This document shows, piece by piece, positions 42,764-59,396 of a stretch of DNA of 64,000 nt. The translations under genes and the position numbers were made by a program. The notes beneath the pieces are model-generated. The model was not told where the DNA came from. It saw only the letters and a program-made list of their open reading frames with translations, and did not search any database. How positions within the stretch are numbered: position 1 is the stretch's first letter; each line of letters opens with the position of its first letter. This DNA is from Candidatus Omnitrophota bacterium (GTDB taxonomy: Bacteria > Omnitrophota > Gorgyraeia > Gorgyraeales > Gorgyraeaceae). Where the stretch lies: contig JBHPHU010000001.1 of NCBI GenBank assembly GCA_042571405.1, positions 9,298 to 73,297 on the forward strand, given 5' to 3'.

Positions 42764-42775
42764 CTTTCTACTTTT

Positions 42776-43018: not shown

Positions 43019-43098
43019 TTAACACCTCCTCTTTCAATGTATTATATTCCAAATAAAATCCCCTTGCAACTTAATTTATTGCAAGGGGTTAGAAAGAG

Positions 43099-43134
43099 TG
43101 GCTCCACCTATATAGCGCATTTCGCAACTGGTTG
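43099..43134 (-). repeat. tRNA-3'-half-like boundary element, copy a
   Basis: Minus sense: caaccagttgcgaaatgcgctatataggtggagcca. It is followed by the terminator hairpin at 43060-88 plus a T-run. Confidence 0.7.
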
Positions 43135-43182
43135 GATTCAGGGGAAGCTGGAAAAACTGTCAAAAGAATTAGTGTTTATCGG

Positions 43183-43560
43183 CTAAATATCATCTTTTGT
43201 AATCCAACTAATAGCATTATCATAATTCTCAAATACTTTAGTTATATTCCCTGTTTTTATCTTATCGCCTTGAGACCACAGTTTATGCCATCCGTCAGAC
43301 AATCCAACATTAACTACAATGGCTGACTTTCCATTCCCAATTTTTTCTTCGTTTTTCTTATGAAAGGTTCTTATTTTTTGCAAATCATCAAAAGACACTT
43401 TGTTAAATTCCAGAGCTGTGTGGTCAAATACTACATTGCAATTTTGCGAAAAATAAGGATGGCGCAACAAGTCTTCTGCCATCTTAATGAAATCCTCAGC
43501 ATTCATCCTGCCGCTTGTCTTTACAACAAGTAATTTAGTATAGTTTATTTTATAATTCAT
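43183..43560 (-). CDS. hypothetical protein (single-gene cassette)
   Basis: 125-aa ORF bounded by element copies a and b. No motif recognised. Confidence 0.5.
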   Translation of the reverse strand: MNYKINYTKLLVVKTSGRMNAEDFIKMAEDLLRHPYFSQNCNVVFDHTALEFNKVSFDDLQKIRTFHKKNEEKIGNGKSAIVVNVGLSDGWHKLWSQGDKIKTGNITKVFENYDNAISWITKDDI

Positions 43561-43622
43561 TTTCTTATTTTACTCCAAAACAAAACTCTCCACAACTATT
43601 TTAATTGCAGAGTGTTACGTAG

Positions 43623-43658
43623 TGGCTCTCTGTATTAAATGAGTTTCGCAACTGGTTA
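43623..43658 (-). repeat. tRNA-3'-half-like boundary element, copy b
   Basis: Minus sense: taaccagttgcgaaactcatttaatacagagagcca, then the hairpin ctctgcaa..ttgtggagag plus a T-run. Confidence 0.7.
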
Positions 43659-43936
43659 CACCTGAAAGGAGCCAACCTATTTACTCAAAAATCAGCTAAT
43701 TTGATTGTGATTTAAGGATTTTAAAAAAGCTCTCGTTAGAGCTTTCTTGTAGGATTATCGCTCAGAGGCATGCAAAAATTAAGAAACTTGTCCCTTTTAC
43801 TCACAGAAAGTTCTCTTAACTGCTTATAAAATATTGCCTTAACCAAAGTAGAATGTATCATGTCAACTGTCATAAGTATTAAAGATTTTATGTCCATTGT
43901 GAGCTACTCTACTTTTAGGAAATGGGTTAATAATGC

Positions 43937-45196
43937 CTATATATAGTTTTGCATCTTCATATAACATTTTATCTGTTTATCTCTTAATTCTTGATCCACA
44001 ATTGGGACTACTTCTCTTATATGTTGAGGAAGCCCATAATCAGTTTCTTTTAATGTATCTATACGTATAACCCTGCAGGCCTTTTTAATCAATTGAAAAT
44101 AAGGCACTTCTATTTCAGGAAGTTTTATCGGAAATTTATCGCTCATATCTGGGGAGCCTGGTGATGCTCCAGCAATATCATCTGTAACAAAGTAAGATTT
44201 TCTTTTTTTCATTTTCTTTTCATAAAGAAAAGTTATAATATTACCTAATCTTTGACTTACATTACTAGAATATTCCGAAACAAGATTCTGACCTGCCCGC
44301 AAATAAACCGCATTAAGGCTTTTATCGGAGATAAGCTCGTCAATAACGGGTTCGTAAATGGGGGGATAAGCAAGATTTACACTAACAAACGTGATTGCAT
44401 ACCACTCTTTCTTGTTACCGGGATATTTCAATTGAAATTTTATACGCGGGTGCCCCTTTTCTTCGTCAACTTTAATATTTGCAACATCAGCACCAATACC
44501 GTAAAAATCCAATGCTAAATGTTCCAGAGTATGATCCAAACTCATTAAATTGGGAAATAAGCTAAGTCCGTTTTTAAATCTATATTCAAGCCCAGGAGCA
44601 TTTTTTTGTTTTAATTTCTCTATTTTATCTTGGCTTAAATTTTCAAAGTATTCCTTAAATCGCGCAGTAACTTCTTTATTTTTACCTAAAGCTCCATACA
44701 TTCCATCCTGATAAAAAGCCATAAAATATCCTATTCGAGCATTAAAAGATCGCATGAAATTAATAACGTCATACGCTGCTCCCAGATAAACAGCGGTATA
44801 TTCAGGATCATCATCTGGGTTTACAATTCTCTTAATCTCCATATCATGAAAAAGATATGAAACATCCAACATATCTGTTGCAATACCAATATTGAGTTTT
44901 TTGGCAATTGCAAGCCGTTTTTCAGAAGATGTTTCTCCTGCAAGCCGTACAAGAAGATTCTCTTTTTCATCCTCGACAAACAAAACAGGTTTTTTCAATA
45001 TATTTTTCTTATTAATAACTTGTTGCATCCTATTTTTGCTATCCAAGGTACTATATTTTAGGGGAATACGAAGCGTGGTGACCCTAGTATTTGACATAAG
45101 AGATAATCTTAGATACCTATCAGCACTATAAGCTGCAGCTGAAAATAAAACCACAAACAATATTATTAAAGTTAACTGTTTTTTAATCCTTATCAT
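43937..45196 (-). CDS. secreted hypothetical protein
   Basis: Signal peptide MIRIKKQLTLIILFVVLFSAAAYSA. Start at 45196 behind GGGTGGA. Its translation-initiation region is shared with 29067-30170. Confidence 0.6.
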   Translation of the reverse strand: MIRIKKQLTLIILFVVLFSAAAYSADRYLRLSLMSNTRVTTLRIPLKYSTLDSKNRMQQVINKKNILKKPVLFVEDEKENLLVRLAGETSSEKRLAIAKKLNIGIATDMLDVSYLFHDMEIKRIVNPDDDPEYTAVYLGAAYDVINFMRSFNARIGYFMAFYQDGMYGALGKNKEVTARFKEYFENLSQDKIEKLKQKNAPGLEYRFKNGLSLFPNLMSLDHTLEHLALDFYGIGADVANIKVDEEKGHPRIKFQLKYPGNKKEWYAITFVSVNLAYPPIYEPVIDELISDKSLNAVYLRAGQNLVSEYSSNVSQRLGNIITFLYEKKMKKRKSYFVTDDIAGASPGSPDMSDKFPIKLPEIEVPYFQLIKKACRVIRIDTLKETDYGLPQHIREVVPIVDQELRDKQIKCYMKMQNYI

Positions 45197-45354
45197 AATC
45201 CACCCAAAAAACAACCCTTTCTCAAGAGTTGAGTTAATCTACTTATTCAATTATAAGTATACCACAAATATTGCTTATTTACAAAAAAATAACCTGCCAA
45301 AAATGACAGGTTACCCTAGTCGTTACTTATTGTAAATAAATGAGTTACAAGTAG

Positions 45355-45390
45355 TGGCTCCCCGTATTGGACGAGTTTCGTAACTGGCTA
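45355..45390 (-). repeat. tRNA-3'-half-like boundary element, copy c
   Basis: Minus sense: tagccagttacgaaactcgtccaatacggggagcca. It is followed by the two-hairpin module at 45290-45347. Confidence 0.7.
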
Positions 45391-45460
45391 ATTAGTATAA
45401 AAAATTAATATTCCACTTTCTATGCTTCTTTTGTGGTATACTGCAAGAAAAGGAGAAACC

Positions 45461-45619
45461 ATGAAAGAAATTGCCTCGATTAAAAAAAAGAGAATCTGTA
45501 AGTTACTTCACTGTAAGAGTGTTTTAAGTATTTACAACCGTGGGGAGTACTGTTATTTCCACAAGAGAGAAGTTTTTAATAAAAAATCTCATCCATTATC
45601 CAGCATCAGCGCCAGTTAA
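45461..45619 (+). CDS. small Cys/His-rich protein
   Basis: Strong RBS (AAAGGAGAAACC then ATG). 52 aa with C..C...C.FH pattern. One of the few plus-strand ORFs in the array. Confidence 0.4.
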   Translation: MKEIASIKKKRICKLLHCKSVLSIYNRGEYCYFHKREVFNKKSHPLSSISAS

Positions 45620-45720
45620 CAATACAAACTTTAAGAACCCTGCCCTCTTATTTTTACATACTGCAACATAAACAAAAAACCCCTTGCAACTTATTTAGTT
45701 ACGAGGGGGGTTAAAAGTAG

Positions 45721-45752
45721 TGGCTCTCCCAAGACTACGACTTTCGCAATAC
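45721..45752 (-). repeat. tRNA-3'-half-like boundary element, copy d (subfamily with copy i)
   Basis: Minus sense: gtattgcgaaagtcgtagtcttgggagagcca, then the hairpin cccctcgtaac..gttgcaagggg plus a T-run. Confidence 0.6.
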
Positions 45753-45787
45753 TTCGGTAAGCTCAGTGCAAGCTTTTTTGGAGGAGT

Positions 45788-46000
45788 TTAGGGATTATTG
45801 CTTATCGCAAAAGCATGGTGATGAGTAATAACCCCACTTGCCATTCTTTCAGTAAATGGCAGCGCAAGGACATGTTGCTTTGGATGATTCTCAAAAGCCT
45901 GTTTGGTTATCTCAAATATTGCATTTATCTCTGATTCTTTCTCTGCGCGGATAATCAAAGTGAACCCTCCAAATAATATAAATTCTACTCCAAAACACAA
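45788..46000 (-). pseudogene. possible GNAT acetyltransferase N-terminal fragment
   Basis: IIRAEKESEINAIFEITKQAF resembles a GNAT N-terminus, but the ORF is only 70 aa. Confidence 0.3.
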
Positions 46001-46083
46001 CCCTCTGCTACTATATTAGTCGCAGAGGGTTATAAAAAGTTTTATATATTATGTTTGGCTACGTAGTTTCTTTAAAAAATTTA

Positions 46084-46347
46084 TTACTCCCAGTCTTCCA
46101 AATCGTCCCAGCCCGGCCCATCAGGAATACCGTCTCCTGAGTTTGGTGCTGGCCCTGGGCTCTTCCCTGTATCTGAGCCATTGGGGCCATTTGGTGTGTC
46201 AAGACCGCTGCCATCAGGAATTCCATCTCCTGAATTTGTTGCTGGTCCAGGACTATTCCCTGAATCAGCAGCCATCGCGGAGCCAATACCAACTAATAAT
46301 AAAGCCATTAACATTGATAAAACCAATATTTTCTTCATGCTTTTCAC
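46084..46347 (-). CDS. small secreted Gly/Pro/Asp-rich repeat protein
   Basis: Signal peptide plus two SPGPA[TP]NSGDGIPDG[SP]G repeats and a GGAGG RBS. Other frames in this GC-rich patch are rejected. Confidence 0.5.
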   Translation of the reverse strand: MKSMKKILVLSMLMALLLVGIGSAMAADSGNSPGPATNSGDGIPDGSGLDTPNGPNGSDTGKSPGPAPNSGDGIPDGPGWDDLEDWE

Positions 46348-46456
46348 CTCCTTATCTGAATATTTTTTATTATATGTCCGCTACATGCTGAATGTCAAGG
46401 CTTATAAAAAATAAGCCCTCTACACCAAAAGTTTGGTGAGAGCGCTTACCGATATG

Positions 46457-46497
46457 TGGCTCCCCCCCCCCTATATGACGCATTTAGCAACTGGTTG
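46457..46497 (-). repeat. tRNA-3'-half-like boundary element, copy e (contains a G10 run)
   Basis: Minus sense: caaccagttgctaaatgcgtcatatag-G10-agcca, followed by the terminator at 46401-46447. Confidence 0.65.
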
Positions 46498-46539
46498 TGG
46501 CAGGATTTAGCTCTATAAATAAGGTACTCTAAGAATATT

Positions 46540-46908
46540 TTACCCTATGAACTTTCTTACTTTACTCAATAATTCCTCTGGCTCAAACGGTTTCATTATA
46601 CAATTATCCGCGCCCATTTCTTTTATCTTCTCAGGAAGTTTGGAGCGAATGGCACTGGCAGTAAACAAAATAATGGGAATATGTTTAAATTTGTCATCAG
46701 ATTTTAGCTTTTTACAAAGTTCATCCCCCTGCATTTTGGGTAAGAGTAAATCCAGTAATATTAAATCACAAACATCATTTTGCAGAAAGGCTATCGCCCC
46801 CTCTGCGTCAACTGCAGATATAATTTCATACCCTGAATGCTTTAATCTCATTGTTGCAACATCCATTATATCCGGCTCATCATCAACAATAAGTATTTTT
46901 TTTGCCAT
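46540..46908 (-). CDS. response regulator receiver protein
   Basis: KILIVDDEPD, LILLDLLLP, receiver-only domain. Start MAKKIL at 46908. Confidence 0.85.
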   Translation of the reverse strand: MAKKILIVDDEPDIMDVATMRLKHSGYEIISAVDAEGAIAFLQNDVCDLILLDLLLPKMQGDELCKKLKSDDKFKHIPIILFTASAIRSKLPEKIKEMGADNCIMKPFEPEELLSKVRKFIG

Positions 46909-46909
46909 A

Positions 46910-48118
46910 TTATATCCTCCGCTCTTCAATAGGCAAGATAAAATAAAAAGCTGTGCCCTTACCAAATTCTGATTCTGCCCAGATTTTTCCTTTATGCGCT
47001 TCTATTATTTTCTTACAAATGGAAAGTCCCAAGCCCGTACCTCCTACTCTTCTTTGTAGTTGCGTGAATTCTTGAAATAGTTTTTGTATGTCTTTTTTTT
47101 CGACGCCTATACCCGTATCTTTAACCATGACTTGAATAAAATTATCTCCTCTATTAGTACTAACAGTAATACCGCCCTTTTCTGTAAATTTAAGGGCATT
47201 ATTTATCAAATTGGTTAAAACTTGAATGATTTTATCCTTATCTAACTTCACTTGAGGGAGATTGTCGTAAAGTTGAACCTCTAAAGTTAGGCCCTTCTCC
47301 TTAGATAAGAGCACCATTGCATTGCATATGCTCTTAACTATCTCATTTATATCGCTATTTTCTATTTTAAACTCCATTTTTCTGGCTTCAAGTTTCTGAA
47401 AATCTAAAACTGCGGTAATTAATCTATCTAATCTATCCACATTATTTTTGGCCATATTCAAATACTTGCCTTGCTCCTCATTGATATCACCGATTAACTT
47501 ATTTAAAACTATACAGATCACTTCTTTGATAACGGCAAGCGGTGTTCTTAATTCGTGAGAAACCATGCCTGTAAACTGCATCCTTATACGCGAAACCTCT
47601 TGCAAATCGCCCATCATATGGAGCATTGCCCTTCGCATTCTGATTAAGTTTTCATTGCGCTCTTCAGTTTCTATTTTATTCTCTTCCAAATCTTTTATAA
47701 TTGCCATAGTCTGGCGCATATCTCTGGCCACACCCACAATGCCGATAACCTTGTTATCCTGCAGCATCTGCCCACACTTAAAATTTACAGGTATAGCCTC
47801 GCCTTGTTTTGTAATGCAAGTCAAACTAATATTATATGTCGAGCCTACAGTAACTATGCTTTCGAAGTATACTTGTAATATTTTTTCTTCTTGTAGAAAA
47901 ATTTTTTTCACTGGTTGGCCGATAAGCTCATCTTCCTGATAATCCAATAAATCCAATACGGCTTTATTTACTGACCTTATCGTGGCATCAAGATTGACTA
48001 CGATCAGAGCATCCATCATTGAGGACATAATACAGTCTAAATACATTTTTTCCTCAAGTTTATTTTCTTTTTTTTCTTTAATGGTAGCTATTTTTCTGGC
48101 CATGTTTTTAAGTATCAT
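46910..48118 (-). CDS. PAS-domain sensor histidine kinase
   Basis: H-box SHELRTPL and N/G boxes (NLINNALKFT, DTGIGV, GGTGLGLSI). Confidence 0.9.
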   Translation of the reverse strand: MILKNMARKIATIKEKKENKLEEKMYLDCIMSSMMDALIVVNLDATIRSVNKAVLDLLDYQEDELIGQPVKKIFLQEEKILQVYFESIVTVGSTYNISLTCITKQGEAIPVNFKCGQMLQDNKVIGIVGVARDMRQTMAIIKDLEENKIETEERNENLIRMRRAMLHMMGDLQEVSRIRMQFTGMVSHELRTPLAVIKEVICIVLNKLIGDINEEQGKYLNMAKNNVDRLDRLITAVLDFQKLEARKMEFKIENSDINEIVKSICNAMVLLSKEKGLTLEVQLYDNLPQVKLDKDKIIQVLTNLINNALKFTEKGGITVSTNRGDNFIQVMVKDTGIGVEKKDIQKLFQEFTQLQRRVGGTGLGLSICKKIIEAHKGKIWAESEFGKGTAFYFILPIEERRI

Positions 48119-49055
48119 CCTGCTTTCGGCTTTTCCTCAAGCTCTTTTAACTTCTTCTCTAATTCTTCCATCTTCAACTCCCTATCTACGGAAAATTTAC
48201 TGAACCGCTCTAAGTCCTGCATCTTCTCGCTTAACTCCTTCTGTATTTTTTTACGCTCGGAGATATCGCTAATGTTACATTGGACAACTTTTGCCTTGTT
48301 GACTAAAAAAACTTCAGAGTTCAATGCCGGGCCTTTTTTGGTTTTTATTGGTGTGTCTTTGTAATGTATTACACCTTCTCTTTCTAATCTAAACATCATC
48401 TCTCGAAAGGCTTTCTCATTTTTAATCACTCCTAAGTCCCAGAGCTTCTTTTTCAAAAACTCCTCTTTGGAATAACCTAGCAATTTCTGGGCTATTTCAT
48501 TAGCATTAAGGACGGTGGCTTCGATTTTGTGAATAAGCAATAATACATTATGCGATGTCTCAAAAGCCCTGTGATAGCGCTCTTCGGACTCCTCCAATTC
48601 TTTCTGTAAATTCTTACGTTCGGTTATGTCTTCAATAGCCAGTAAGATTAACTCTTCTTCTGTTGCTGTTGCAGTAACTCCTTTCACTATTATTGATGCT
48701 ACTTGCCCAGGGATGCGCAACTGACAGACATTTAGGCTCATTATTCTCTGTCCAATTTTCTCAAATTTATGGGCTACTTCATAATTGTTCACAACTTTTT
48801 TTTTGGTAAGACTTCTTTTAATAGTTTGATCAGCTCAGGTACATTCCATTGCTTATCATCTAAATCATAGAAAAACTGGCCTATTGTATCTTGTTTTTTA
48901 GCCTTAAAAGTGTTATAGAAAGCTTCGTTAGCAGAAATAACCCGCAATTTTTTATCCAACACTAAAAACGGCTCTCTTAGAGTAGAGATAATGCGATTGC
49001 CATAATCTAAGGCTGCTTTAATTTCTAACTCTTTACCCTGGTTTTTATCTTTCAT
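48115..49055 (-). pseudogene. PAS sensor protein split by a frameshift in an A9 run (or slippage-dependent gene)
   Basis: ORFs 48789-49055 and 48115-48792 together reconstitute one PAS domain matching the N-terminus of 49673-51277. They are separated by the run at 48796-48804. One extra A restores ...LPKKKVVNNYEV... Confidence 0.6.
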
Positions 49056-49101
49056 TTTTCAATCCCTCCTTTTTTTATGTCCTTATTCTTTTACGGATTT
49101 T

Positions 49102-49479
49102 CTAAAGAGTTTCTTCATTTAATAATCCCTCCACTTTATGTATGAATTCTGTGGGATGGAATGGCTTTACTATAACGTCTTTTACTCCAAGTACTAAGGC
49201 ATCATCTTTCATCTTTTCATTTTTTGCTTCAGTAACAATGATAGCGGGAATATCTTTTAGCCTGTCATCGTTTCTGACTCTTGACAATAGCTCGCAGCCG
49301 TCCATCACAGGCATCATCAGATCTACAACTAGCACGTCAAACTTTTCTTTTTTGAGTACGCTAAGGGCTTCTTTGCCGTTAGCAACAACTTTCACCGCAT
49401 ACCCTTTAAACCGCAGAGCCAGGTTTACGATCTTTATGGCCATTGTCGAATCATCCGCTATTAATATTCTCTTACTCAT
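49102..49479 (-). CDS. response regulator receiver protein
   Basis: ILIADDS, VLVVDLMMP, KP motifs, 125 aa. Confidence 0.85.
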   Translation of the reverse strand: MSKRILIADDSTMAIKIVNLALRFKGYAVKVVANGKEALSVLKKEKFDVLVVDLMMPVMDGCELLSRVRNDDRLKDIPAIIVTEAKNEKMKDDALVLGVKDVIVKPFHPTEFIHKVEGLLNEETL

Positions 49480-49672
49480 TGAATATACCTATCTTTTCAA
49501 TGACATTAACAGTGCCGAATCTATTGTCATTACATTCTCTCATAATACATAGAGTAATAATGATAAACGTTTTCTTGCTTCAAATCGAAGTATATGTATT
49601 TTTATTTAATGTGACAATGAGGAAATAACAGGTAGGTAATGGGTATGATAAATACCTACTAAGGCTTTTCTT

Positions 49673-51550: not shown

Positions 51551-51586
51551 TGGCTCCCTGTATTGGACAGGTTTCGCAAATGGTTA
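51551..51586 (-). repeat. tRNA-3'-half-like boundary element, copy f
   Basis: Minus sense: taaccatttgcgaaacctgtccaatacagggagcca, then the 13-bp hairpin cgagaaggccctt..aagggccttctcg. Confidence 0.7.
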
Positions 51587-51611
51587 TGCCGTGAAGCAAA
51601 AGCTGTCTCTT

Positions 51612-51794
51612 TTAGCGACTGCCTTCCTTACGCTTTGAGAAACATTCCTTACAGTAGACTGGGCGGTCTCCGCTAGGCTTAAAAGGGACTTCACATTCTT
51701 TTTTACACTCTTCGCAAATCGCCTTGTGCATCTCTCTGGGACGTCCAAATCCACTACCACCTTGAAACCCCATGCTTCCTCCTTTATTGTTCAA
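51612..51794 (-). CDS. CxxC-x17-CxxC zinc-ribbon domain protein
   Basis: CEECKKECEVPFKPSGDRPVYCKEC. 60 aa with a Gly-rich N-terminus. Confidence 0.7.
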   Translation of the reverse strand: MNNKGGSMGFQGGSGFGRPREMHKAICEECKKECEVPFKPSGDRPVYCKECFSKRKEGSR

Positions 51795-51940
51795 TTAATC
51801 TGCTAAACACCAATAGTATATTCCAGGCAAAAGCCAATTGCAACATATTTTATCACATAAGGTTAGAATTAGCGCGCGCGAGGAAGCGGAGAAATTATTG
51901 AGCAAAATTGTCTGACTATCTCTATTTAATATACACAATT

Positions 51941-52846
51941 TCATCTATTAAGTATTGTCTTAACAGCCTGCTCAAGCGCAGGATTGAACCGTTCAGGAGA
52001 TTTAAGCATTAGAAAATGGTCCAGCCCGTCCAACTCAATCAACTCAAAATCTTTTATATGTCGTTTGTTAGCCTCAATATCAGTCGGCCAAAGGTCAGCA
52101 TTTACGGCTATAACCGGAATATACAACTCATCAAACAACTTAGCTACATCACCTCTCAGATAATTACCCAATGTTTCATTAATAGCACTGATGGCAACTT
52201 CAGGATCAGCCAAAGACATATCAGAAATAATCCACTCATTAACCTGCAAATTATCCAAACGCAGCATCCCTCCAACAAAACCTCTCATAGCCTGCTTAAA
52301 ATCTTCTCTAAAGGGTGTAACCATCTCCTCAAACTGTTTTTCGCTTAAAGGATATTCCACATTTTGGAAGTCATCAACCACAACTAATCCAATAACCTTA
52401 TCCGGCATCAAAAGGGCCGCCTCTACACTCACAAGAGCCCCCATAGAATGACCGATTAAAATAACTTTGTCTGCTTTAATGCTCTCAACAACAGTCTTCA
52501 CATCCTGGCCAAAAGCTTCAGTTGTGTAGTTCTCTCGTTCACTCCCGGAACGGCCATGTCCAGCCAAATCAAGCAAAATTATACGATATTTCTCCTTAAA
52601 ATAGTTGACCTGCTCCCTCCAGTAAGTAGCGTCACAACTCCATCCATGAACAAACACAAGCACCGGCCCCTTTTGGCCATGCTCGTAGTAGTTAATCTCT
52701 ATGTTATCGTTAGAGATAGCTATTTTACCGACCTCAAAGCTCTGCTGAGTATCACCTTGCTTAACAACCGATAAAAGAGCAATTCCGGCTGTTAAAATCA
52801 TCGTCACTAGAAGTACTAATTTAATAATTTTATTTTGTCTCATCAT
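51941..52846 (-). CDS. alpha/beta hydrolase with signal anchor
   Basis: HGW..(oxyanion) and GHSMG nucleophile elbow, 301 aa. Confidence 0.8.
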   Translation of the reverse strand: MMRQNKIIKLVLLVTMILTAGIALLSVVKQGDTQQSFEVGKIAISNDNIEINYYEHGQKGPVLVFVHGWSCDATYWREQVNYFKEKYRIILLDLAGHGRSGSERENYTTEAFGQDVKTVVESIKADKVILIGHSMGALVSVEAALLMPDKVIGLVVVDDFQNVEYPLSEKQFEEMVTPFREDFKQAMRGFVGGMLRLDNLQVNEWIISDMSLADPEVAISAINETLGNYLRGDVAKLFDELYIPVIAVNADLWPTDIEANKRHIKDFELIELDGLDHFLMLKSPERFNPALEQAVKTILNR

Positions 52847-52940
52847 TTTCTCCTCCTCTATAGATATTAATAATAGGTTATGATTTTACTACAAATAAAA
52901 ACCCGTTACAACTTTAATAATTACAACGGGTTAAAATAAG

Positions 52941-52976
52941 TGGCTCCCCGCATTAGATGAGTTTCGCAACTGGTTA
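52941..52976 (-). repeat. tRNA-3'-half-like boundary element, copy g
   Basis: Minus sense: taaccagttgcgaaactcatctaatgcggggagcca, then the terminator cccgttgtaa..ttgtaacggg plus a T-run (G.U pairs only in minus sense). Confidence 0.75.
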
Positions 52977-53053
52977 TATATAGGAGGAGCTAATAAACTA
53001 CATAAAGAATCAGTAATTGTATCACTAGCGACCAGATAGTAGCTAGTAGAAAT

Positions 53054-54181
53054 CTAGATATAAGTCAAATTTTCATTCACAGCGACTACCAATCTTTTTA
53101 AGCTTAATACTGTATTTACTCCAACAGCATTGGCAAAATCAATAGCAGTATCAACCGGATTTTCAGACTGAGTTATAGCGGCATTTACTAAAACAGAGTT
53201 AAATCCCATTTGCATGGCCCCTCGAGCCTGTGCAGCTGTACCTATGCCACATTCGGCTATCAATGGAATGTCAGGCTTTATCCCCCTAGCCAAAGTCATG
53301 ACTTTCCTTATTAAACCCTTCTCTGCTTTTGTCCCTAATCCTTTACCAGAACCTGGCCGCGTTCCTTCAATGCGCAATGCAACAACTTGGTCAAAGTCCA
53401 GCAATGTTTCCAGCATTTCCCTTGTTATTCCTTTACCTATCAAAGGTAGGATTCTAATATCTTTATTAAGACTGACTAATCGTTTTACAGTAGCGACTAT
53501 TTCGACATTTTTTGTCATTAAATCTGGGCCTCGTATTTCAAGCTTAATGTAGGGGATTTTTGAAAACTTGGCCCATAACCCTACCATTATTATGGCTTCG
53601 TCTTGTGTCTGAACTTTGCTAGTGTTCCCCACTATGATAAATTCCCTCGTTTGGCCTAGCTGCTTCAACTCTTCGTCAACTAATCTCACATGTTCGATCT
53701 GCATCGCCCTGGGAAGCATTGCAATGTTACTTTCCTTGCCTAAGTTACAAAAACCAGAATTCTCCTCAAAATTGGAATTTCGCAACCATTCTTCTGCGTC
53801 TTTTAAAGCAATACTTGATCTCAACTGCTCTATATCTCCTAGTAAAAAAATAAAAAATTGAGATTTAGATTTGATAATAAGATCGCATGCGACTTTTGGC
53901 AAAAGCGTAGCGATAGGGGCATTGTTATCATTATCGGCGCTAAGCAAGTGAGTAATTGCTGTTGGAGCTATTAAAGCATATAACGACTTATTGTTAATAA
54001 TCAACCCATAAGAACCTTGAATACCATCCTTGTTTTGGATTTTTTGGAACAAAAAAGGAACTCGTAAGGAATCATTTGAACTTGGACAAGAATAAACAGT
54101 AGCAATAAACATGGGCACAATAGTTATCACTAATGATATCATTTTTATGTTAAAATTATATATTTTTCTAAATCCCTTCAT
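53054..54181 (-). CDS. exported protein with divergent ThiG-like (thiazole synthase TIM-barrel) C-terminal domain
   Basis: KLEIRGPD...LIAECGIGTAAQARGAMQMGFNSVLVNAAI parallels ThiG IKLEVIGD...VIVDAGIGTPSDAAxAMELGADAVLxNTAIA. The N-terminal about 170 aa are unrelated and begin with a signal peptide. Confidence 0.45.
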   Translation of the reverse strand: MKGFRKIYNFNIKMISLVITIVPMFIATVYSCPSSNDSLRVPFLFQKIQNKDGIQGSYGLIINNKSLYALIAPTAITHLLSADNDNNAPIATLLPKVACDLIIKSKSQFFIFLLGDIEQLRSSIALKDAEEWLRNSNFEENSGFCNLGKESNIAMLPRAMQIEHVRLVDEELKQLGQTREFIIVGNTSKVQTQDEAIIMVGLWAKFSKIPYIKLEIRGPDLMTKNVEIVATVKRLVSLNKDIRILPLIGKGITREMLETLLDFDQVVALRIEGTRPGSGKGLGTKAEKGLIRKVMTLARGIKPDIPLIAECGIGTAAQARGAMQMGFNSVLVNAAITQSENPVDTAIDFANAVGVNTVLSLKRLVVAVNENLTYI

Positions 54182-54254
54182 AATTACCCCAAAAAAATAA
54201 CCTCGTCCTCCTATTAAGGCTACACTGTATCATCAATCTAGTCTGACATTGATA

Positions 54255-54283
54255 ATTATATCACAGAGGTTATCTTTTGACAA
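54255..54283 (-). promoter_or_regulatory. sigma70-type promoter for 53054-54181
   Basis: Minus sense: TTGTCA - 17 nt (ending TGTGA) - TATAAT. Confidence 0.45.
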
Positions 54284-54390
54284 GAAATTCTGATGTACAA
54301 TCCGATGTCATATCGACAAAAAAATAACCTGCCAAAAAATGACAGGTTATTTTAATCGTAACTTATTGATAATAAATAAGTTACAAGTAG

Positions 54391-54412
54391 TGGCTCCCTG
54401 GGATGGACGATG
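54391..54412 (-). repeat. tRNA-3'-half-like boundary element, copy h (3' part only)
   Basis: Minus sense: catcgtccatcccagggagcca. It is followed by the two-hairpin module at 54325-54384. Confidence 0.6.
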
Positions 54413-54466
54413 TTGATAGCGCTGGAGAATTTAACTCGTTTCTGCAAGTATATAATAAATCTACTA

Positions 54467-55630
54467 CTATATTTTTAAAATATACCCTGTTGTTCTTCCT
54501 CTTCCAATTTTTTGGATAACTCCTATCTCAAGAAGCCGATTAAAATCCTTACGTGCTGTTTCATCAGAACATTGAGCAAGTTTACAATATTTCTTGGTTG
54601 TCATTTTCTCAGAATGTTCAAGCATCCACTTGAGCGCTTTTATCTGTTTCTTGTCAAGCTCAGCTTGGACCTTTTGACTTAGAATATCTCGGATACCTCT
54701 GACGTTTGTTTCTTTTTCGATTTCAACTTGAACATCTTTCAATTGCTCAGCAAGAGCCTTCAGGTAATAAAGGATAAAAAATGTTGCGTCATTGCCATGA
54801 ACTTCTGCATTTTGTATCGCTCTATAATATTCGCCACGATGATGATCAAAATAATCTGAAGGTGAAAGAAAATTAATAAATTGATAATCTTGGTTCATCA
54901 GATACAAATTTGATAAAGCTCTAGCTAATCTACCGTTACCATCATCAAAAGGATGTACATGCACAAAATATAGGTGTACTAGCGATGCCTTGATCAACGG
55001 ATGAGTCTCATAAACCATATTTACCCACTGAACGTAGGAATCCATCATTTGCACGACTTTAGATGCTGGTGGACCTTCATAAACAACTTGTCCTTGACCG
55101 TTAACAACATATATGGGCCCTTTACGGTACTTCCCGACAGTAATGGGCTTTTCCTTGTGAGTATTTTTGACAAGAATCTTGTGTAATTCGCAGATCATGT
55201 TATGTCTAAAAGGCTGGTTCCTTTTACTGCGGATGTATCCTAATGCCTCCCTATTATTGGCTATCATTTGAAGGCTTTCATCTCCATAGTCTTCTTTAGA
55301 AGGTCTGTTTAGACAAAGCAGTGCTTCTTCCAATGACGTTACAGCCCCTTCAATATGGCTGGAATAATAAGCTTCTTTTTTTTCAATTTCTGATTCTAAT
55401 CTATTTAGAAACTTTTTTGGAAGCTTAAGCGATGCCAAAAAACCCCTGTTTCTTTCTATTTCTGAGATCAGGTTTAGAAGTTCGGAAGGCAAAACAAACC
55501 AAAATGGTTTGTCCTTTTTATCAAAAAGCTCCAGCGAATTTGCTTTGCGATAGCGCTCTTTCTCGATCTCACGCCACTTTGAGATACTATATTTAGCTAC
55601 AATTTTGTGTTTTTCTGGATAATTTATCAT
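54467..55630 (-). CDS. Fic family protein with C-terminal winged-helix domain
   Basis: HPFDDGNGRLAR Fic motif. The C-terminal IGVIQKIGRGRTTGYILK is wHTH-like. Confidence 0.85.
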   Translation of the reverse strand: MINYPEKHKIVAKYSISKWREIEKERYRKANSLELFDKKDKPFWFVLPSELLNLISEIERNRGFLASLKLPKKFLNRLESEIEKKEAYYSSHIEGAVTSLEEALLCLNRPSKEDYGDESLQMIANNREALGYIRSKRNQPFRHNMICELHKILVKNTHKEKPITVGKYRKGPIYVVNGQGQVVYEGPPASKVVQMMDSYVQWVNMVYETHPLIKASLVHLYFVHVHPFDDGNGRLARALSNLYLMNQDYQFINFLSPSDYFDHHRGEYYRAIQNAEVHGNDATFFILYYLKALAEQLKDVQVEIEKETNVRGIRDILSQKVQAELDKKQIKALKWMLEHSEKMTTKKYCKLAQCSDETARKDFNRLLEIGVIQKIGRGRTTGYILKI

Positions 55631-55842
55631 AATAAAATCACCAACTATTCGCCAATAGTATGCCTTATCTTTTACTGTTTGTCAAGTATAATCGCCAATA
55701 AATTGCCAATTATTCGCCAAGCAGAAAAACTTAATGCCATCTACTTTCGACTTATGAATCTTTTTCAGATAAAAAAATAACCTGCCAAAAAATGACAGGT
55801 TATTTTAGTCGTAACTTATTTAAAATAAATAAGTTAAAGAAG

Positions 55843-56069
55843 TGGCTCCCCCGCGAGGACTCCGGCCTTCGGCCTAGAACCTGTCGCTCATTTGCATTCG
55901 CTCCCCAAAGGGGCTCTCCTTCGACTCTGCTCAGGATGGTTCAAGGGATGGTGAGCCTGTCGAACCATGCCCCTATGGCGTTCCTCGCTTCGCTCGTCAC
56001 TGTTACCCCGAAAGCGTGGGGAAAATTTTTCCCCACACCCCTTTGGTTCTCGTCCTCGCGGGGGAGCCA
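55843..56069. other. 227-nt GC-rich element bracketed by 18-bp perfect inverted copies of the tRNA-Asn 3' end
   Basis: tggctcccccgcgaggac at 55843-55860 is the reverse complement of 56052-56069. 55843-55862 is 20/20 identical to the tRNA 3' end at 59066-59085. The interior shares tcgcttcgctcgt with the tRNA intron. Confidence 0.65.
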
Positions 56070-56117
56070 AATTTGACACAAAAAAAGACACCAGGCAAAA
56101 ATGCCTGGTGTCAAATT

Positions 56118-56147
56118 TGGCTCCCCCAAGACTACGAGTTTCGCAAC
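56118..56147 (-). repeat. tRNA-3'-half-like boundary element, copy i
   Basis: Minus sense: gttgcgaaactcgtagtcttgggggagcca, followed by the terminator gacaccaggca-tttt-tgcctggtgtc plus T7. Confidence 0.65.
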
Positions 56148-56312
56148 TTTTTGGATGAGTTTAGGAATTATTGTTTGAGCAAGGAAGTAGATAAGCTATT
56201 AGCAATTATGACTTAAAAATAGCTATTTTTTCTTAGTTTCCATATATTCCACAACTTGCAAGAGAAAAGAACATCCACCGGCTAAGCCGGTGGATGTTTA
56301 CTAATATGGCCT

Positions 56313-56840
56313 TTATTTCTTAAATTCTTTCGATGCGCAGTTCATAGAAGATGAGCGAAAAGTAATTTTTTTGATTGGCATCTTGTCTTTAAGAAGCTCG
56401 TATAAGAGTTCACACCAATTCTCACAAGTAGTAACTTTTTTGCTAACAACTATTCTGTATTCTGGATACGACCAAGCAAGTGGGTGGTCTATCTTTTTAA
56501 GAGGAACGCAATGCTCTGGGTCGTTAGTAATGTTTGCCTTTTTATATACCTCAAGCATCGGCTCAAGAAGAGGGTCGCCTTCCTGCAATATTGTTGCGTG
56601 GTGAAAATGGTCACAAACTTCCCATGCTTTTTTGAACCCATCTTTACAAGCATGTGCAAATCCAGTTACCGGGTCTACGGTATCTTCGAGTTCAATCGTT
56701 ACAAGGCCTGAATGACCATGAAGGTGCTTTGCTTCGCGCGGCCAATTCATAAACCTATGTGCATACTGAAAATCAAGTTTTACTATTGATGTATACTTAT
56801 CTTTTGACATGATAGTTTCCTCCTTTTGGTTAATGTCCAT
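56313..56840 (-). CDS. 6-pyruvoyl-tetrahydropterin synthase/QueD-family protein
   Basis: FQYAHRF...HLHGHSGLVTIELE resembles the PTPS zinc-binding His pattern. Confidence 0.5.
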   Translation of the reverse strand: MDINQKEETIMSKDKYTSIVKLDFQYAHRFMNWPREAKHLHGHSGLVTIELEDTVDPVTGFAHACKDGFKKAWEVCDHFHHATILQEGDPLLEPMLEVYKKANITNDPEHCVPLKKIDHPLAWSYPEYRIVVSKKVTTCENWCELLYELLKDKMPIKKITFRSSSMNCASKEFKK

Positions 56841-56948
56841 ATTTTTATATTATTTACTGCATGCCGCTAGTTACGCTTTATTTTCTAAACTAACCCCCTT
56901 TCGTAATATCTACTAATAGTAATTATTCCTATTAGTAGGTCAAAAAAC

Positions 56949-57380
56949 TTACTTCTTACACTTACCGCAGATACCCTCCAATACAACTTTTTTATTAAGC
57001 ACTGTCAACTTATTCTTAATGTAACTAGGTATTTCGATTTCATCATATGCTTTATTATGAAAATCTATTATTTTATGACACTTTACGCATTGGAAATGGT
57101 GATGATTGTCTATATCCGGGTCAAATCTTTTTGGCTTTCCATAGCCTTCAACTACTTTAATAATTCCTAAATCCGCAAAGGAAAGCACGGTTCTATTGAC
57201 AGTGTCTAATGAAATATGAGGAAACTTTTTTCTGACCCTTTGATAAATAAGGTCTGCGGAAGGATGGTCAGAAGCACCAAGTAACTCTTGATATATAGCA
57301 GTTCTCTGTGGTGTAATCTTTAGATTATTTTCCTGACACTTATTTACAAACAAGTTTAATGACTCGGTTTTCTTATTCAT
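56949..57380 (-). CDS. Fur family transcriptional regulator
   Basis: wHTH N-terminus, HHHFQCVKC...CGKC double CxxC, 143 aa. Confidence 0.85.
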   Translation of the reverse strand: MNKKTESLNLFVNKCQENNLKITPQRTAIYQELLGASDHPSADLIYQRVRKKFPHISLDTVNRTVLSFADLGIIKVVEGYGKPKRFDPDIDNHHHFQCVKCHKIIDFHNKAYDEIEIPSYIKNKLTVLNKKVVLEGICGKCKK

Positions 57381-57500
57381 ACTAACTACTATATAGGATT
57401 AACTACTATTTGTCAAGCCATGTTTTAAAAAAGTTCGATAATAAAAATTGGGTTAAAGAAAAACCCACTGCAACTTATTTAATTGCAGTGGGTTATATAA

Positions 57501-57525
57501 TGGCTCCCCGGGCAGGACTCGAACC
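57501..57525 (-). repeat. tRNA gene fragment (T-loop to CCA), att-like remnant
   Basis: Minus sense ggttcgagtcctgcccggggagcca, compared with the real tRNA ggttcgagtcctcgcgggggagcca. There is no 5' half. Confidence 0.7.
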
Positions 57526-57636
57526 AAACTCTTAATTACTCTTAACTATACTTAACTGTATGTCGATGTTCTTAACCTCGAACTATTCTCTAAGTTATCT
57601 CTATGTTTATTCTAGTAAAATTTTTCTCCTTTAAGC

Positions 57637-57685
57637 TTGACTTTGTAATATAAATAGGTTACAATTGTAATACAAAGAGGTTACA
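57637..57685 (+). promoter_or_regulatory. sigma70-type promoter with a 21-nt direct repeat (putative operator) for the MNT/HEPN pair
   Basis: TTGACT - 17 nt - TACAAT. ttgtaatataaataggttaca (57643-63) and ttgtaatacaaagaggttaca (57665-85) are direct repeats. Confidence 0.45.
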
Positions 57686-57689
57686 GACT

Positions 57690-58262
57690 ATGGATATAAC
57701 AAGAATCTTCAAATCTAAGGCCAGGCAGGCAATATTTCGTCTGTATTTCACCAATCCGGAAAAAAGTTTTTATCTTAGGGAATTAGAGCGTGAGCTTGGC
57801 ACTCCTGTTTCTATATTGCGCAAGGAACTCATATCTTTAGAAAAGGAGGGTTTTTTCTCCTCTTCTAGACATGGAAACCTCTTATATTACTCCCTTAACA
57901 AGGAATATACGCTTTATAACGAAATCAAAGCCATTGTGTTTAAAACCGTCGGCATACAAGGGTCTCTTTCGAAGGCACTTCTGGATATAAAAGGCATTGA
58001 GGCGGCTTTCATATATGGATCATACGCTAAAAACGCGAGTAACGCCAAAAGCGACATTGATCTTTTTATTTTGGGTAATCCTGACGAAGATATAATCGTG
58101 AAAAAAATAAACAGTCTTGAGAAAAGCTTAAATCGTGAAATAAACTATAGTATATATACAAAAACTAACTTCGGGAAAAAGAAAAAACAAAAAGATTCAT
58201 TTATTGAAGATGTTTTAAAAAATAGGAAGATTTTTCTGATAGGAGGTAAAAATGACCTTTGA
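57690..58262 (+). CDS. nucleotidyltransferase (MNT-type) with N-terminal winged-helix domain
   Basis: GSYAKN..SDIDLFILG minimal NTase motif. The N-terminal part is ArsR-like wHTH. Confidence 0.75.
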   Translation: MDITRIFKSKARQAIFRLYFTNPEKSFYLRELERELGTPVSILRKELISLEKEGFFSSSRHGNLLYYSLNKEYTLYNEIKAIVFKTVGIQGSLSKALLDIKGIEAAFIYGSYAKNASNAKSDIDLFILGNPDEDIIVKKINSLEKSLNREINYSIYTKTNFGKKKKQKDSFIEDVLKNRKIFLIGGKNDL

Positions 58263-58716
58263 TAGCTTCATAAAAGAATATATAAAACGCGGGCTTATTA
58301 AAAAACAGCCAAAAAATTTAAAGACTATTGAGAACCTTATTTCCAGATCCTATAAAGAAATCAAGGCTGCCGAGGCGAATATAAAGATCGATGAAGGAAT
58401 TGCCTTTACTATTGCATATACAGCGATGCTTCACGCAGGCAGGGCTATTATGCTATTTAAAGGTTATAGACCCCACGATGGCTATCAGCATAAAACAGTT
58501 GTCGATTTTGCGTCAATTGTGCTTGGTGAACATTACAAAACTCTAACACAACGTTTTGACAAGATGCGAAGAAAAAGAAATATATTTACCTACGAAGTCA
58601 GTATTTCGATTTCAGAAGAAGAAGTAAAAAATGCGCTTAAGTCTGCTAAAGATTTCATAAAAGCCGTCCGTGAGTTAATCGAAAAAGAAGACCCCCAACA
58701 TAAATTCAGATTCTAG
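58252..58716 (+). CDS. HEPN domain protein (partner of the MNT)
   Basis: Overlaps the MNT stop. All-helical 154 aa with a FDKMRRKRNIFTYE HEPN-type segment. Confidence 0.7.
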   Translation: MTFDSFIKEYIKRGLIKKQPKNLKTIENLISRSYKEIKAAEANIKIDEGIAFTIAYTAMLHAGRAIMLFKGYRPHDGYQHKTVVDFASIVLGEHYKTLTQRFDKMRRKRNIFTYEVSISISEEEVKNALKSAKDFIKAVRELIEKEDPQHKFRF

Positions 58717-58995
58717 CGTCTTATCCGCTCGCGTAACTAGAGATAAAGAGAGATAATACAGAGATAAAATCCTAGTTTATCTCTGTATTCAGGAAAATAT
58801 ATATTGGATATACTTCGAAATAATCGCCAAAATAGCCCGTTACTAGAAAGTGTTAACTAAGTGGCGATTTAGAGATAAAGAGATAAGGTGGGAGTGAAAT
58901 CCCTAAAGAAGATCTTTTAGAGATAATCGAATAAATTAAGAACAAAATACCGTCGGAAAACATAGCGCCTAAGTGTTTGACGCGTTGTCAGATAC

Positions 58996-59025
58996 AAAAA
59001 TAGCCTGGCAAATTCTACCAGGCTA
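58996..59025 (-). terminator. intrinsic terminator of tRNA-Asn
   Basis: Minus sense: tagcctgg-tagaatttg-ccaggcta followed by a T-run. Confidence 0.6.
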
Positions 59026-59065
59026 TTTTGTTGTAACTCATTATATCTCAATAAGTTACGATATA

Positions 59066-59396
59066 TGGCTCCCCCGCGAGGACTCGAACCTCGGACAACG
59101 TGGTTACACTCTGACTCCGATTACTCGGAGAGTCGGACTATACCTTTGCCATAGCCATTTCTGGCTTTAGGCAGCGAGTGTCTAGTCTCTGCACCTTTCC
59201 GTCTTCGCCAAGCAACTTTCGTGCTTGGCTTCGCCGGACTTGGCTCAGGATTGACCCAATTGCTTGGGCTTTCCCTGAATTTACTCGCTTTTTCACTCCA
59301 GAGTTTCCTCTGGAGGCTGCTAACTTTTGCGAAGTTTTTGTGCACTCGCTTCGCTCGTGCAACAGCCACGCGCTCTACCAACTGAGCTACAGGGGA
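59066..59396 (-). tRNA. tRNA-Asn(GUU) interrupted by a group I intron; CCA encoded
   Basis: Exons 59362-59396 and 59066-59106 join to TCCCCTGTAGCTCAGTTGGTAGAGCGCGTGGCTGTTAACCACGTTGTCCGAGGTTCGAGTCCTCGCGGGGGAGCCA. That is 76 nt with a clean cloverleaf, and closely resembles E. coli tRNA-Asn. Confidence 0.9.
59107..59361 (-). mobile_element. group I intron (IC3-like) in the anticodon loop
   Basis: AAUCCUGAGCCAAG and GGUGCAGAGACUAGAC...CCUAAAGCC...GGCUAUGG cores match the cyanobacterial tRNA-Leu and Azoarcus tRNA-Ile introns. IGS GCAGCC pairs with the exon end GGCUGU (U.G at the splice site). The terminal residue is G. Confidence 0.85.

Follow-up and report, generated by a model that had tools for sequence, protein, structure and literature searches.

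Probable remnants of serine-recombinase elements in tandem at the 3' end of a tRNA-Asn gene in an Omnitrophota genome

Introduction

What has assembled the row of short, unrelated gene cassettes that lies downstream of the tRNA-Asn(GTT) gene in this Omnitrophota genome? In the 64-kb stretch of contig JBHPHU010000001.1 analysed here (hereafter the window), the cassettes are punctuated by copies of a 36-nt repeat that mimics the 3' end of the tRNA. An earlier note on this DNA offered two readings. Either elements had inserted serially into an attachment (att) site of tRNA-Asn that ran from the anticodon loop to the 3' end, or the cassettes belonged to an uncharacterised system whose recombination or RNA-processing site is a mimic of the tRNA 3' half.

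Our analysis favours, with a probability of roughly 0.8, a tandem array of about 12 remnants of integrative elements, built by repeated insertion of elements with a large serine recombinase (LSR) at the 3' end of tRNA-Asn. The 36-nt mimic and about 57 nt beside it very probably represent the end of an LSR gene that lies on the opposite strand and contains the attachment half-site.

Results

Repeat copies in the window

Related loci were gathered by sequence patterns. A scan of one genome per species yielded 15 loci, 11 of them from metagenome-assembled genomes (MAGs) or single-amplified genomes (SAGs) labelled Omnitrophota; genome matches in Vicinamibacterales (L001) and Dyadobacter (L007) looked like chance or unrelated hits and were excluded. 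A metagenome scan gave at least 120 stretches. Related loci bear labels of the form L001, and 139 were compared.

The minus strand of the window carries 9–11 co-oriented copies of the repeat that end in GGGGAGCCA, solely downstream of the intron-split tRNA-Asn. Every copy listed in the earlier note was present at its coordinates and on that strand. A consensus search of the window with up to 3 mismatches gave 3 matches against 0 expected, and a profile built from the clear copies recovered copies a, b, c, e, f, g and i at E ≤ 7e-5, with no other match in the 64 kb; copies d and h are decayed. GGAGCCA occurs 15 times in the window, 11 times on the minus strand at 43.1–59.1 kb. The co-oriented repeats that bound units and are related to the target's 3' end comprise 11 copies at 43.1–59.1 kb and copy z at 38.58 kb, all downstream of the tRNA.

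Copy z (38584–38602), a degenerate copy suspected beside the macB stop, is genuine, because L050 has an intact copy directly adjoining homologous sequence. In L064, moreover, a copy of the repeat with its flank (a scar) lies directly before the TolC-like gene of the efflux operon. The repeats do lie within 43050–59396, as first described, but in view of these two loci the array reaches further and spans at least 38.54–59.4 kb.

The likeness to the tRNA, put at about 60% by eye, held up. The element matches the 41-nt 3' exon of tRNA-Asn in 28 of 41 aligned columns (68%), and 0 of 2000 shuffles scored equally. The tRNA-like fragments at 55843 and 57501–57525 are true pieces of the tRNA 3' end, 20–25 nt long (copies j and k), and are the only ones; the remaining nine repeats are mimics unable to form a T-arm. 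Apart from the intron, Rfam gave no match for the repeats, either at the gathering cut-off or at E ≤ 1.

A hairpin follows every copy at a distance of 5–12 nt, as had been observed, and six of these were flagged as terminator-like. The claimed preference for minus-sense RNA applies to most hairpins, which are more stable in that sense, but not to all. Promoter-like sites total 61 in the window against 53 ± 7 expected, no excess over chance, and therefore only the positions of the best sites were used. These lie 30–160 nt after copies a, e, f, g, h, j and k. Pfam confirmed the heterogeneous cargo (MNT/HEPN, Fur, PTPS-like, two-component genes, Fic, a hydrolase and others). Neither a Pfam scan of the open reading frames (ORFs) nor comparison with recombinase and tail sequences found a recombinase anywhere in the window, in line with the first impression.

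A recombinase tail on the opposite strand

The conserved stretch exceeds 36 nt and extends about 45–60 nt further upstream in the tRNA sense. Read on the opposite strand, all copies give W-L-P-x-L-D-E-F-R-N-W-L, then 16–20 residues (…EEAxKLYKEL…) and a stop. Tail and mimic together encode the last ~31 residues of an LSR (WLPxLDEFRNWL…KLYKEL…stop). Differences among copies are often synonymous (e.g. CCC/CCT/CCA, TTG/TTA, GAC/GAT), and the tryptophan codon TGG is the complement of the tRNA-like CCA. TAACCA, previously taken as the start of the element, is the W-L codon pair of a single subfamily; other subfamilies start with ACAAAA or CAAAAA.

The two parts of this stretch appear to be conserved in different ways. 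Over 168 copies, the first in-frame stop falls at codons 27–34, most often at codon 31 (49/168). In codons 13–31, the ratio of nonsynonymous to synonymous polymorphism (pN/pS) is 0.38 in frame, versus 0.81 and 1.05 in the shifted frames (48 distinct 31-codon tails). Codons 1–12, the 36-nt mimic, are almost invariant even at synonymous sites (pN 0.059, pS 0.077), an invariance that at the pattern positions is partly due to ascertainment, since the copies were gathered by sequence patterns. The mimic therefore appears to be constrained as DNA and the region beyond it as protein; conservation at the DNA level would be as expected of an attachment half-site. Codon-position entropy over the mimic alone is weakly periodic, for which reason the tail was analysed separately.

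Two other coding interpretations were rejected. An SSV-like split integrase, of which the tail would be the N-terminal fragment, is ruled out by a conserved frame that has a conserved stop and no conserved start. Sense-strand coding is ruled out by an in-frame TAG in the duplicated-type copies.

Parent recombinases and junction states

A profile of the tail alone retrieved 6 short ORFs from the protein database and no parent gene. Clustering of all ORFs from the metagenome loci led to the parent: in L112, L122, L048, L135, L131, L099, L101 and L081, this tail is directly attached to LSR genes. The gene of L135 (9026–10540, 504 aa) carries the Pfam domains Resolvase, Recombinase and Zn_ribbon_recom. 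The LSR of L112 (396 aa, cut by the contig end) has the C-terminus …SPFYMIAKCGQNKN-WLPRQDEFRNFCMSDETEKVYNKLEDVISVC-stop, and the versions in L122, L048, L131, L099, L101 and L081 are shorter or interrupted.

A profile of the last 137 LSR residues matched 643 database proteins, the best 120 of which are all fragments of 75–232 aa; truncated 3' ends are therefore far commoner than whole LSR genes. The family is nevertheless large. A search with the L112 protein gave 1408 homologs at E ≤ 1e-20, and 112 of the best 120 are full-length. Forty of these 112 end in a translation of the tRNA complement (…W-x-x-x-x-D-S-N…), in 52 the stop falls no more than about four codons from W-L-x (e.g. WLPG-stop), and only 5 have the native LDxFR(T/N) tail. 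Together, 92 of the 112 end in tails of tRNA-complement type. The closest full-length relatives of the L112 recombinase (85–93% identity) end in WLPG-stop.

The overlap with a tRNA can be seen directly in L138 (GCA_000402235.1) and L139. Here, an intact 493-aa LSR, 91% identical to that of L112, adjoins tRNA-Asn(GTT), and its last 15 nt overlap the true tRNA in antisense. The DNA after GGGGAGCCA in these two loci (GTTTTTAGTTTGGCCACATTTGG…) is the DNA that follows the mimic in L112 and L122, and a single LSR lineage is thereby seen in both junction states. The same arrangement occurs at tRNA-Gln(TTG) in L136, on a 4-Mb contig. In L135, L138 and L139 the LSR gene lies at the element edge by the attachment site; there is none in the window.

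If the mimic half-site is called P, the tRNA 3' end B, the recombinase coding flank P' and the native-type tRNA flank B', all four half-site combinations are present, with one common breakpoint directly after GGGGAGCCA. The tRNA is joined to the native flank (B-B') in the window and L129, and to the recombinase flank (B-P') in L138, L139 and L106. The mimic is joined to the recombinase flank (P-P') in L112 and L122, and to a native or older flank in most scars. The junctions of the window can be classed in this way as B-B' (the tRNA and j), B-P' (k), P-B' (c and h) and P-P'-like (a, b, d, f and g).

The repertoire of flank types after true tRNA ends equals that after mimics. Hairpins after scars are often decayed recombinase codons (…KPLATYFIARGYK-stop-WLP resembles …KPFDLLAKGLSRSN-WLP), and these remnants apparently now serve as terminators. 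From 0 to about 75 recombinase codons are kept beyond the W. In L135, the LSR body is only 23% identical to that of L112, and an L112-type tail (10494–10586) is joined to it one base out of frame. This junction may be a hybrid between unrelated units, or else a frameshift or an assembly error.

A somewhat different junction was observed in L077 (26–100), where a tRNA-Asn without an encoded CCA runs directly into a palindromic AAATTTTGGCAC… flank. This flank type follows GGGGGAGCC in scars (cf. window 56058–56117). Exchange may therefore take place a few bases ahead of the CCA.

Linkage to tRNA-Asn and gain or loss of units

The tie between the element and tRNA-Asn, which the earlier note proposed to check in related genomes, was borne out across the 139 loci. 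The tRNA adjoining the copies is tRNA-Asn only, save for a tRNA-Pro at the start of L039, and at arrays tRNA-Asn is always upstream and co-oriented. It stands beside copies in L014, L045, L060, L065, L077, L106 and L129, in intron-bearing form in L047 and L069, and in the window. Arrays of 2–5 copies are common in the related loci.

Presence and absence of units with breakpoints at the element, another check put forward at the outset, is apparent from L065 and L129, whose sequences agree at 98.9% of positions over 5.2 kb. Two units are present in L129 but not in L065: one of 1.6 kb with MNT/HEPN, which sits precisely at the 3' end of the tRNA and is flanked by a 25–26-nt repeat of that end, and one of 0.6 kb between two scars. 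The window shares the MNT/HEPN unit, and copy k is its distal repeat there. DUF6868 and other cassettes occupy different array positions among the loci. Ends of homology blocks lie within 60 nt of breakpoints in 15% versus 3% (Mann-Whitney p ~1e-16), although most block ends still fall inside genes.

Units of the array

The array in all likelihood consists of about 12 LSR-less units made by serial insertion at the tRNA 3' end. Counted from the tRNA, and on the minus strand unless stated otherwise, they are as follows; gene assignments are from Pfam.

Unit 1 (57526–59065) comprises a native-type flank with two hairpins (58990–59060) and the MNT/HEPN pair (57690–58716, plus strand); window positions 57617–59106 are 83.5% identical to L129 8624–10111. 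Its distal repeat, copy k (57501–57525), is a 25-nt true tRNA-type 3' end (GGTTCGAGTCCTGCCCGGGGAGCCA) that matches the tRNA-Asn allele of L014 and is followed by a hairpin of recombinase-derived type (57462–57494). Unit 2 (56118–57500) has a promoter-like site (57388–57416), Fur (56949–57380), a PTPS-like gene (56313–56840), a terminator (56270–56298) and scar i (56118–56216), whose plus strand reads WLPQDYEFRNFLDEFRNYCLSKEVDKLLAIMT-stop.

Unit 3 (55843–56117) lacks protein cargo and consists of a palindromic flank and a 233-nt structured segment, with copy j (55843–55885) as a tRNA-type end that has a 14-nt insert in the T-loop. The insert is itself a 14-nt hairpin (GGTTC-taggccgaaggccg-GAGTCC) and is also present in L006 and L064. 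The 233-nt segment (55843–56075) lies between perfect 18-nt inverted copies of the tRNA 3' end (TGGCTCCCCCGCGAGGAC … GTCCTCGCGGGGGAGCCA) and folds at -113 kcal/mol (z = -6.3 versus shuffles). An inversion product, a small non-coding RNA and a miniature element are candidate explanations for it.

Units 4 and 5 both begin with a native-type flank, which in unit 4 has two hairpins. Unit 4 (54391–55842) contains a promoter-like site (55657–55685), a Fic/DeoR-HTH gene (54467–55630) and decayed scar h (54391 to about 54470). Unit 5 (52941–54390) contains a promoter-like site (54255–54283), a ThiG-like gene (53054–54181) and scar g (52941–53039), in which the mimic is a perfect consensus and the tail reads WLPALDEFRNWLYIGGANKLHKESVIVSLATR-stop (E = 6e-18 to the tail profile). 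Unit 6 (51551–52940) holds a hairpin (52900–52932), an alpha/beta hydrolase (51941–52846), a zinc-finger protein (51612–51794) and scar f (51551–51673).

Unit 7 (46457–51550) carries sensor and regulator cargo. Its hairpin (51497–51548) is a remnant of recombinase codons (…AKG.SR.N), and the flank is 81% identical to a recombinase fragment of L011. PAS-LuxR (49673–51316), response regulators, PAS fragments and a histidine kinase (46540–49479) follow, and the unit closes with scar e (46457–46505), which is decayed and has a poly-G expansion. Between response regulator and histidine kinase, at 48115–49055, two short overlapping ORFs show partial PAS matches. One of them is 49% identical to part of the PAS-LuxR protein, and they look like a broken or duplicated sensor gene.

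Unit 8 (45721–46456) has a perfect promoter-like site (46369–46398), two small ORFs without family match and decayed scar d of the duplicated type (45721–45828). Unit 9 (45355–45720) is nearly empty, with a hairpin (45680–45708) and scar c (45355–45405), whose mimic is kept and whose tail is truncated; empty tandem units of 130–150 nt are common in other loci. Unit 10 (43623–45354) combines a native-type two-hairpin flank, a 425-aa protein without family match (43937–45214) and scar b (43623–43715; tail WLSVLNEFRNWLHLKGANLFTQKSANLIVI-stop). Unit 11 (43099–43622) consists of a hairpin (43588–43612), a SpoIIAA-like gene (43183–43560) and scar a (43099–43178).

Unit 12 (38584–43098) is a fusion of two units. 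After a hairpin (43060–43088) come DUF6868 (42776–43018) and TolC-like, HlyD-like and MacB genes (38600–42763), and then degenerate scar z and a hairpin at 38538–38583. In L014, L075 and L017, DUF6868 forms a cassette of its own between scars, but in the window it is joined to the TolC/HlyD/MacB operon.

Two further observations concern the DNA beyond scar z. At 38182–38280 there is a paralogous copy of the region of a small treble-clef zinc-finger gene (cf. 51625–51785). Homologs of this region adjoin scars in L038, L055 and L056, and in L055 the segment order relative to a 611-aa gene (36120–37955) is reversed, so that an array of shuffled units may continue below 38.5 kb. Further away, at 28090–30170 (minus strand), a second gene with a Fic domain and a 367-aa ORF that matches no family have a GC content of 0.32–0.34 versus about 0.41. 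This patch, with no scar or tRNA near, may be an unrelated insertion.

The tRNA-Asn gene and its surroundings

The target, and thus the attB side, is tRNA-Asn(GTT) at 59066–59396 on the minus strand, identified by Rfam RF00028 and sequence reading. It consists of exon 1 (59362–59396), a group I intron (59107–59361) and exon 2 (59066–59106), which terminates in GGGGGAGCCA. The intron matches RF00028 with 81 bits at 59114–59341. The exons share 100% and 90% identity with the tRNA-Asn of L045/L065, which has no intron. ARAGORN reported no tRNA in the window, because the intron splits the gene.

The intron separates positions 35 and 36 of the anticodon. A tRNA-Asn with an intron stands at the head of the arrays of L047 (about 7483–7560) and L069 (about 7514–7748) as well, whereas in the close relatives L045, L065 and L129 the same exons are uninterrupted. 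Bacterial tRNA group I introns are known for Leu, fMet, Ile and Arg; a literature search for one in bacterial tRNA-Asn found nothing relevant.

Upstream of the tRNA lies an operon for 2-oxoacid:ferredoxin oxidoreductase, and the order of operon and tRNA-Asn is common to the window and Omnitrophota SAG AM-311-J02 (77–79% nucleotide identity). The thiamine pyrophosphate-binding subunit encoded just upstream of the tRNA (59427–61523, minus strand) carries an intein. The protein is 698 aa long versus 311 aa in its L014 homolog, and the LAGLIDADG match is weak. Intein and group I intron thus place two self-splicing elements side by side.

Discussion

How the array may have been built

The junctions suggest the following course of events. 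The LSR gene would lie at the edge of the element and read toward the tRNA, with the attachment site inside its last ~31 codons. Half-site P would be the 36-nt mimic (…GTTGCGAAACTCGTCC…GGGGAGCCA), and the ~57 nt upstream of it, in the tRNA sense, would encode the remainder of the tail and the stop. Strand exchange would take place within or at the end of GGGGAGCCA, the sequence common to tRNA and mimic, and the crossover dinucleotide probably lies there too. Exchange at this point would put a new element between the intact tRNA and the previous flank. The new element's tail and mimic would form the distal junction, before an older flank with its hairpin terminator and the promoter of the next unit.

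The LSR of the tRNA-proximal element would terminate in tRNA-encoded codons, with its own tail and mimic at the far junction. A newer insertion at the tRNA would place its tail and mimic before the older LSR body and recreate a full-length gene. This fits the intact genes found inside the arrays of L112, L122 and L135; the out-of-frame tail on a 23%-identical body in L135 is as expected for a junction of unrelated partners. Repeated insertions would move older units away from the tRNA, and later loss of LSR bodies to varying extents would leave scars of tail, mimic and hairpin between the cargo genes. The LSR presumably catalyses these insertions, and units without a recombinase may still be movable in trans.

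Serial insertion at tRNA-Asn with tandem accretion, as proposed earlier, is thus retained in essence. An attachment site reaching from the anticodon loop is not, since the breakpoint is instead at the 3'-terminal GGGGAGCCA. Rather than restoring the tRNA, the mimic provides the half-site on the element's side, and on the other strand it supplies codons 1–12 of the LSR C-terminal tail. Of the alternative first put forward, a cassette system on a tRNA 3'-half mimic, the recombination site survives and the RNA-processing site does not. Units as short as 0.4 kb without a recombinase, held not to fit ordinary integrative elements, do exist, yet they need not remain a puzzle: they can be explained as recombinase-less remnants or cis-mobilizable cassettes, and the recombinase is intact in related arrays.

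Several points weigh against this reconstruction. With classical serine integrases, an attL-like site does not serve for a further insertion, so that tandem accretion needs a relaxed choice of sites (as in CcrAB) or B'-like flanks; the flanks here share CTnnTTnTAAC. The near-invariance of the mimic owes something to ascertainment, as mentioned. A scan of viral contigs gave no match, and neither a complete element with both junctions in one contig nor an excised circle was seen. Intact LSRs come mostly from a sister subfamily, probably Atribacterota to judge from the source name of P0134, and not from the Omnitrophota subfamily of the window, in which the LSR genes seen are all truncated or interrupted (L131, L099, L011). 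The 64-kb window itself contains no LSR gene and no LSR fragment longer than the tail. Therefore, this particular array may be serviced in trans or be a fossil.

Alternative explanations

The best-surviving alternative is indeed that the units are dead remnants of LSR elements, and that genomes differ through homologous recombination or deletion between the 80–150-nt scars. We consider this possible, though clearly the less likely account. It agrees with the lack of an LSR in the window, with the decay of scars a, c, d, e, h and z, and with the loss of one unit boundary through the fusion of DUF6868 to the efflux operon. The fragmentary state of the best 120 of the 643 proteins matched by the C-terminal profile also indicates that recombinase genes are usually destroyed. 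However, scars g, b and i retain a near-consensus mimic and an open tail with its stop in the usual place, and the tails are under purifying selection. Furthermore, the differences between near-identical contigs consist of entire units whose limits coincide with the breakpoints, one of them inserted directly at the tRNA, and related arrays contain intact LSRs.

A more far-reaching proposal, which we regard as rather unlikely, is that the array is a working gene-capture platform, integron-like and run by a serine recombinase at the tRNA. Each recombinase-less cassette would then carry a P half-site and a functional copy of the last ~28–31 LSR residues, and a cassette inserted before an LSR-bearing unit would rebuild the C-terminus of that enzyme. 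The enzyme would have its native tail in an excised circle or inside the array, and a tRNA-encoded stump (WLPG-stop) next to the tRNA. Such a tail exchange could switch the enzyme between integration- and excision-competent forms without a separate directionality factor.

Islands made by tyrosine integrases, with copies of the tRNA from anticodon loop to 3' end that have since diverged, are very improbable. Tandem partial tRNAs are typical of such islands, as in tycheposons; copies j and k are true tRNA 3'-end fragments of 20–25 nt, and one mimic subfamily starts with TAACCA. On the other hand, TAACCA is merely a W-L codon pair that is missing in other subfamilies, the mimic cannot restore the T-arm, and the breakpoint is at the CCA end. 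There is no tyrosine recombinase among the window ORFs scanned against Pfam, nor among the recurrent protein clusters of related loci (grouped by BLAST clustering only, with no systematic annotation), and the recombinase physically joined to the repeat is a serine enzyme.

We give even less credence to an RNA element, in which a tRNA 3'-half mimic in the 3'-UTR, with two hairpins and an acceptor-like end, would be recognised by tRNA-processing enzymes. The element does lie on the sense strand, past gene stops and ahead of terminators, and it has a GCCA end and 68% identity to the tRNA 3' exon. Yet, the compensatory changes reported for the second small hairpin vanish in an alignment of 94 distinct sequences. 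Over both hairpins, 84.2% of cells are paired versus 84.3% in shuffles, and the covariation score is 0.063 versus 0.065 when shuffled. This lack of covariation, the codon-like conservation of the opposite strand with its conserved stop, and the contiguity with recombinase genes in other loci do not support an RNA-processing site. Neither do the missing Rfam match and the absence of a 5' acceptor-strand partner.

Finally, an integron or attC cluster without its integrase may safely be set aside: short, co-oriented and heterogeneous cassettes with toxin-antitoxin-like cargo and no recombinase within units are shared features, but the repeat is coding-derived, followed by a separate terminator and no imperfect palindrome with R''/L''/L'/R' boxes, the cassettes have promoter-like sites of their own, and the associated recombinase is a serine enzyme, not IntI.

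Significance

Targeting of tRNA genes is usually ascribed to tyrosine integrases. The present results bring to light a large family of serine recombinases aimed at the 3' ends of tRNA genes; a literature search found no description of an LSR family with such targets, nor of serine recombinases at tRNA-Asn. The kind of island itself is known, and what is new here would be that the target is tRNA-Asn and that every cassette bears a recombinase tail under selection. The proposed insertions would account for the build-up of variable regions by tRNA-Asn in the poorly known phylum Omnitrophota and, it seems, also in Atribacterota and others. With an attachment site within the last codons of the enzyme and a displaced tail under selection, C-terminal control of the direction of recombination becomes directly testable, which is relevant to the engineering of serine integrases. 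The locus also holds a warning for annotation, as short conserved 'tRNA-like' repeats after genes can be attachment scars and recombinase fragments instead of RNA elements.

Comparison with known systems

The closest known system is that of the ssrA islands of Dehalococcoides; SCCmec composites and tycheposons are also comparable. The Dehalococcoides islands stand in tandem downstream of the tmRNA gene and are bounded by 20-bp repeats of its 3' end (McMurdie et al., 2011; PMC3146451). A CcrB-like LSR lies at the edge by attL and reads toward the target; its 3' end always overlaps attL, and its stop codon lies in the neighbouring island or the target gene (PMC3146451). The overlapping tail was judged non-functional and divergent, and the many islands without an integration module were interpreted as cis-mobilizable elements (PMC3146451). 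The arrays described here are alike in their tandem islands at a tRNA-like gene, their 3'-end repeats and, in related loci, an LSR at the edge that reads toward the target with its 3' end over attL. In contrast, the target is tRNA-Asn (other tRNAs in the wider family) and not tmRNA, the hosts are Omnitrophota and probably Atribacterota, and units are as short as 0.13–0.6 kb. Moreover, we saw no second small recombinase or six-gene integration module here, and the tail is a conserved ~31-residue peptide, under purifying selection, on every unit.

In the staphylococcal cassette chromosomes (SCC, including SCCmec), the conserved gene rlmH (orfX) receives cassettes at its 3' end through the action of serine recombinases. 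The cassettes carry a copy of the target's 3' end, and tandem composites include recombinase-less pseudo-cassettes between repeated integration sites. However, the target there is protein-coding and its 3' end is restored by the cassette, whereas here the tRNA stays intact and the repeat restores the recombinase's own C-terminus. The ccr genes, furthermore, lie within the cassette, and the attachment site does not fall inside them.

The tycheposons of Prochlorococcus are likewise anchored at tRNA genes, where each new integration displaces earlier elements inward; they contain partial copies of tRNAs, degraded integrases and niche-adaptive cargo, and 910 of 937 use tyrosine recombinases (Hackl et al., bioRxiv 10.1101/2020.12.28.424599). 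Whereas the repeat described here is a coding-derived mimic, those of tycheposons are true partial tRNAs.

An attachment site inside a gene, such that integration alters the product, is also known from the integration-dependent immunity phages BPs and Brujita and from SSV-type integrases. The altered product is the C-terminus of the repressor in BPs and a split integrase in the archaeal SSV1, and both use tyrosine recombinases. In the arrays described here, by contrast, the gene that is crossed encodes a serine recombinase, and only its last ~28 residues would be exchanged.

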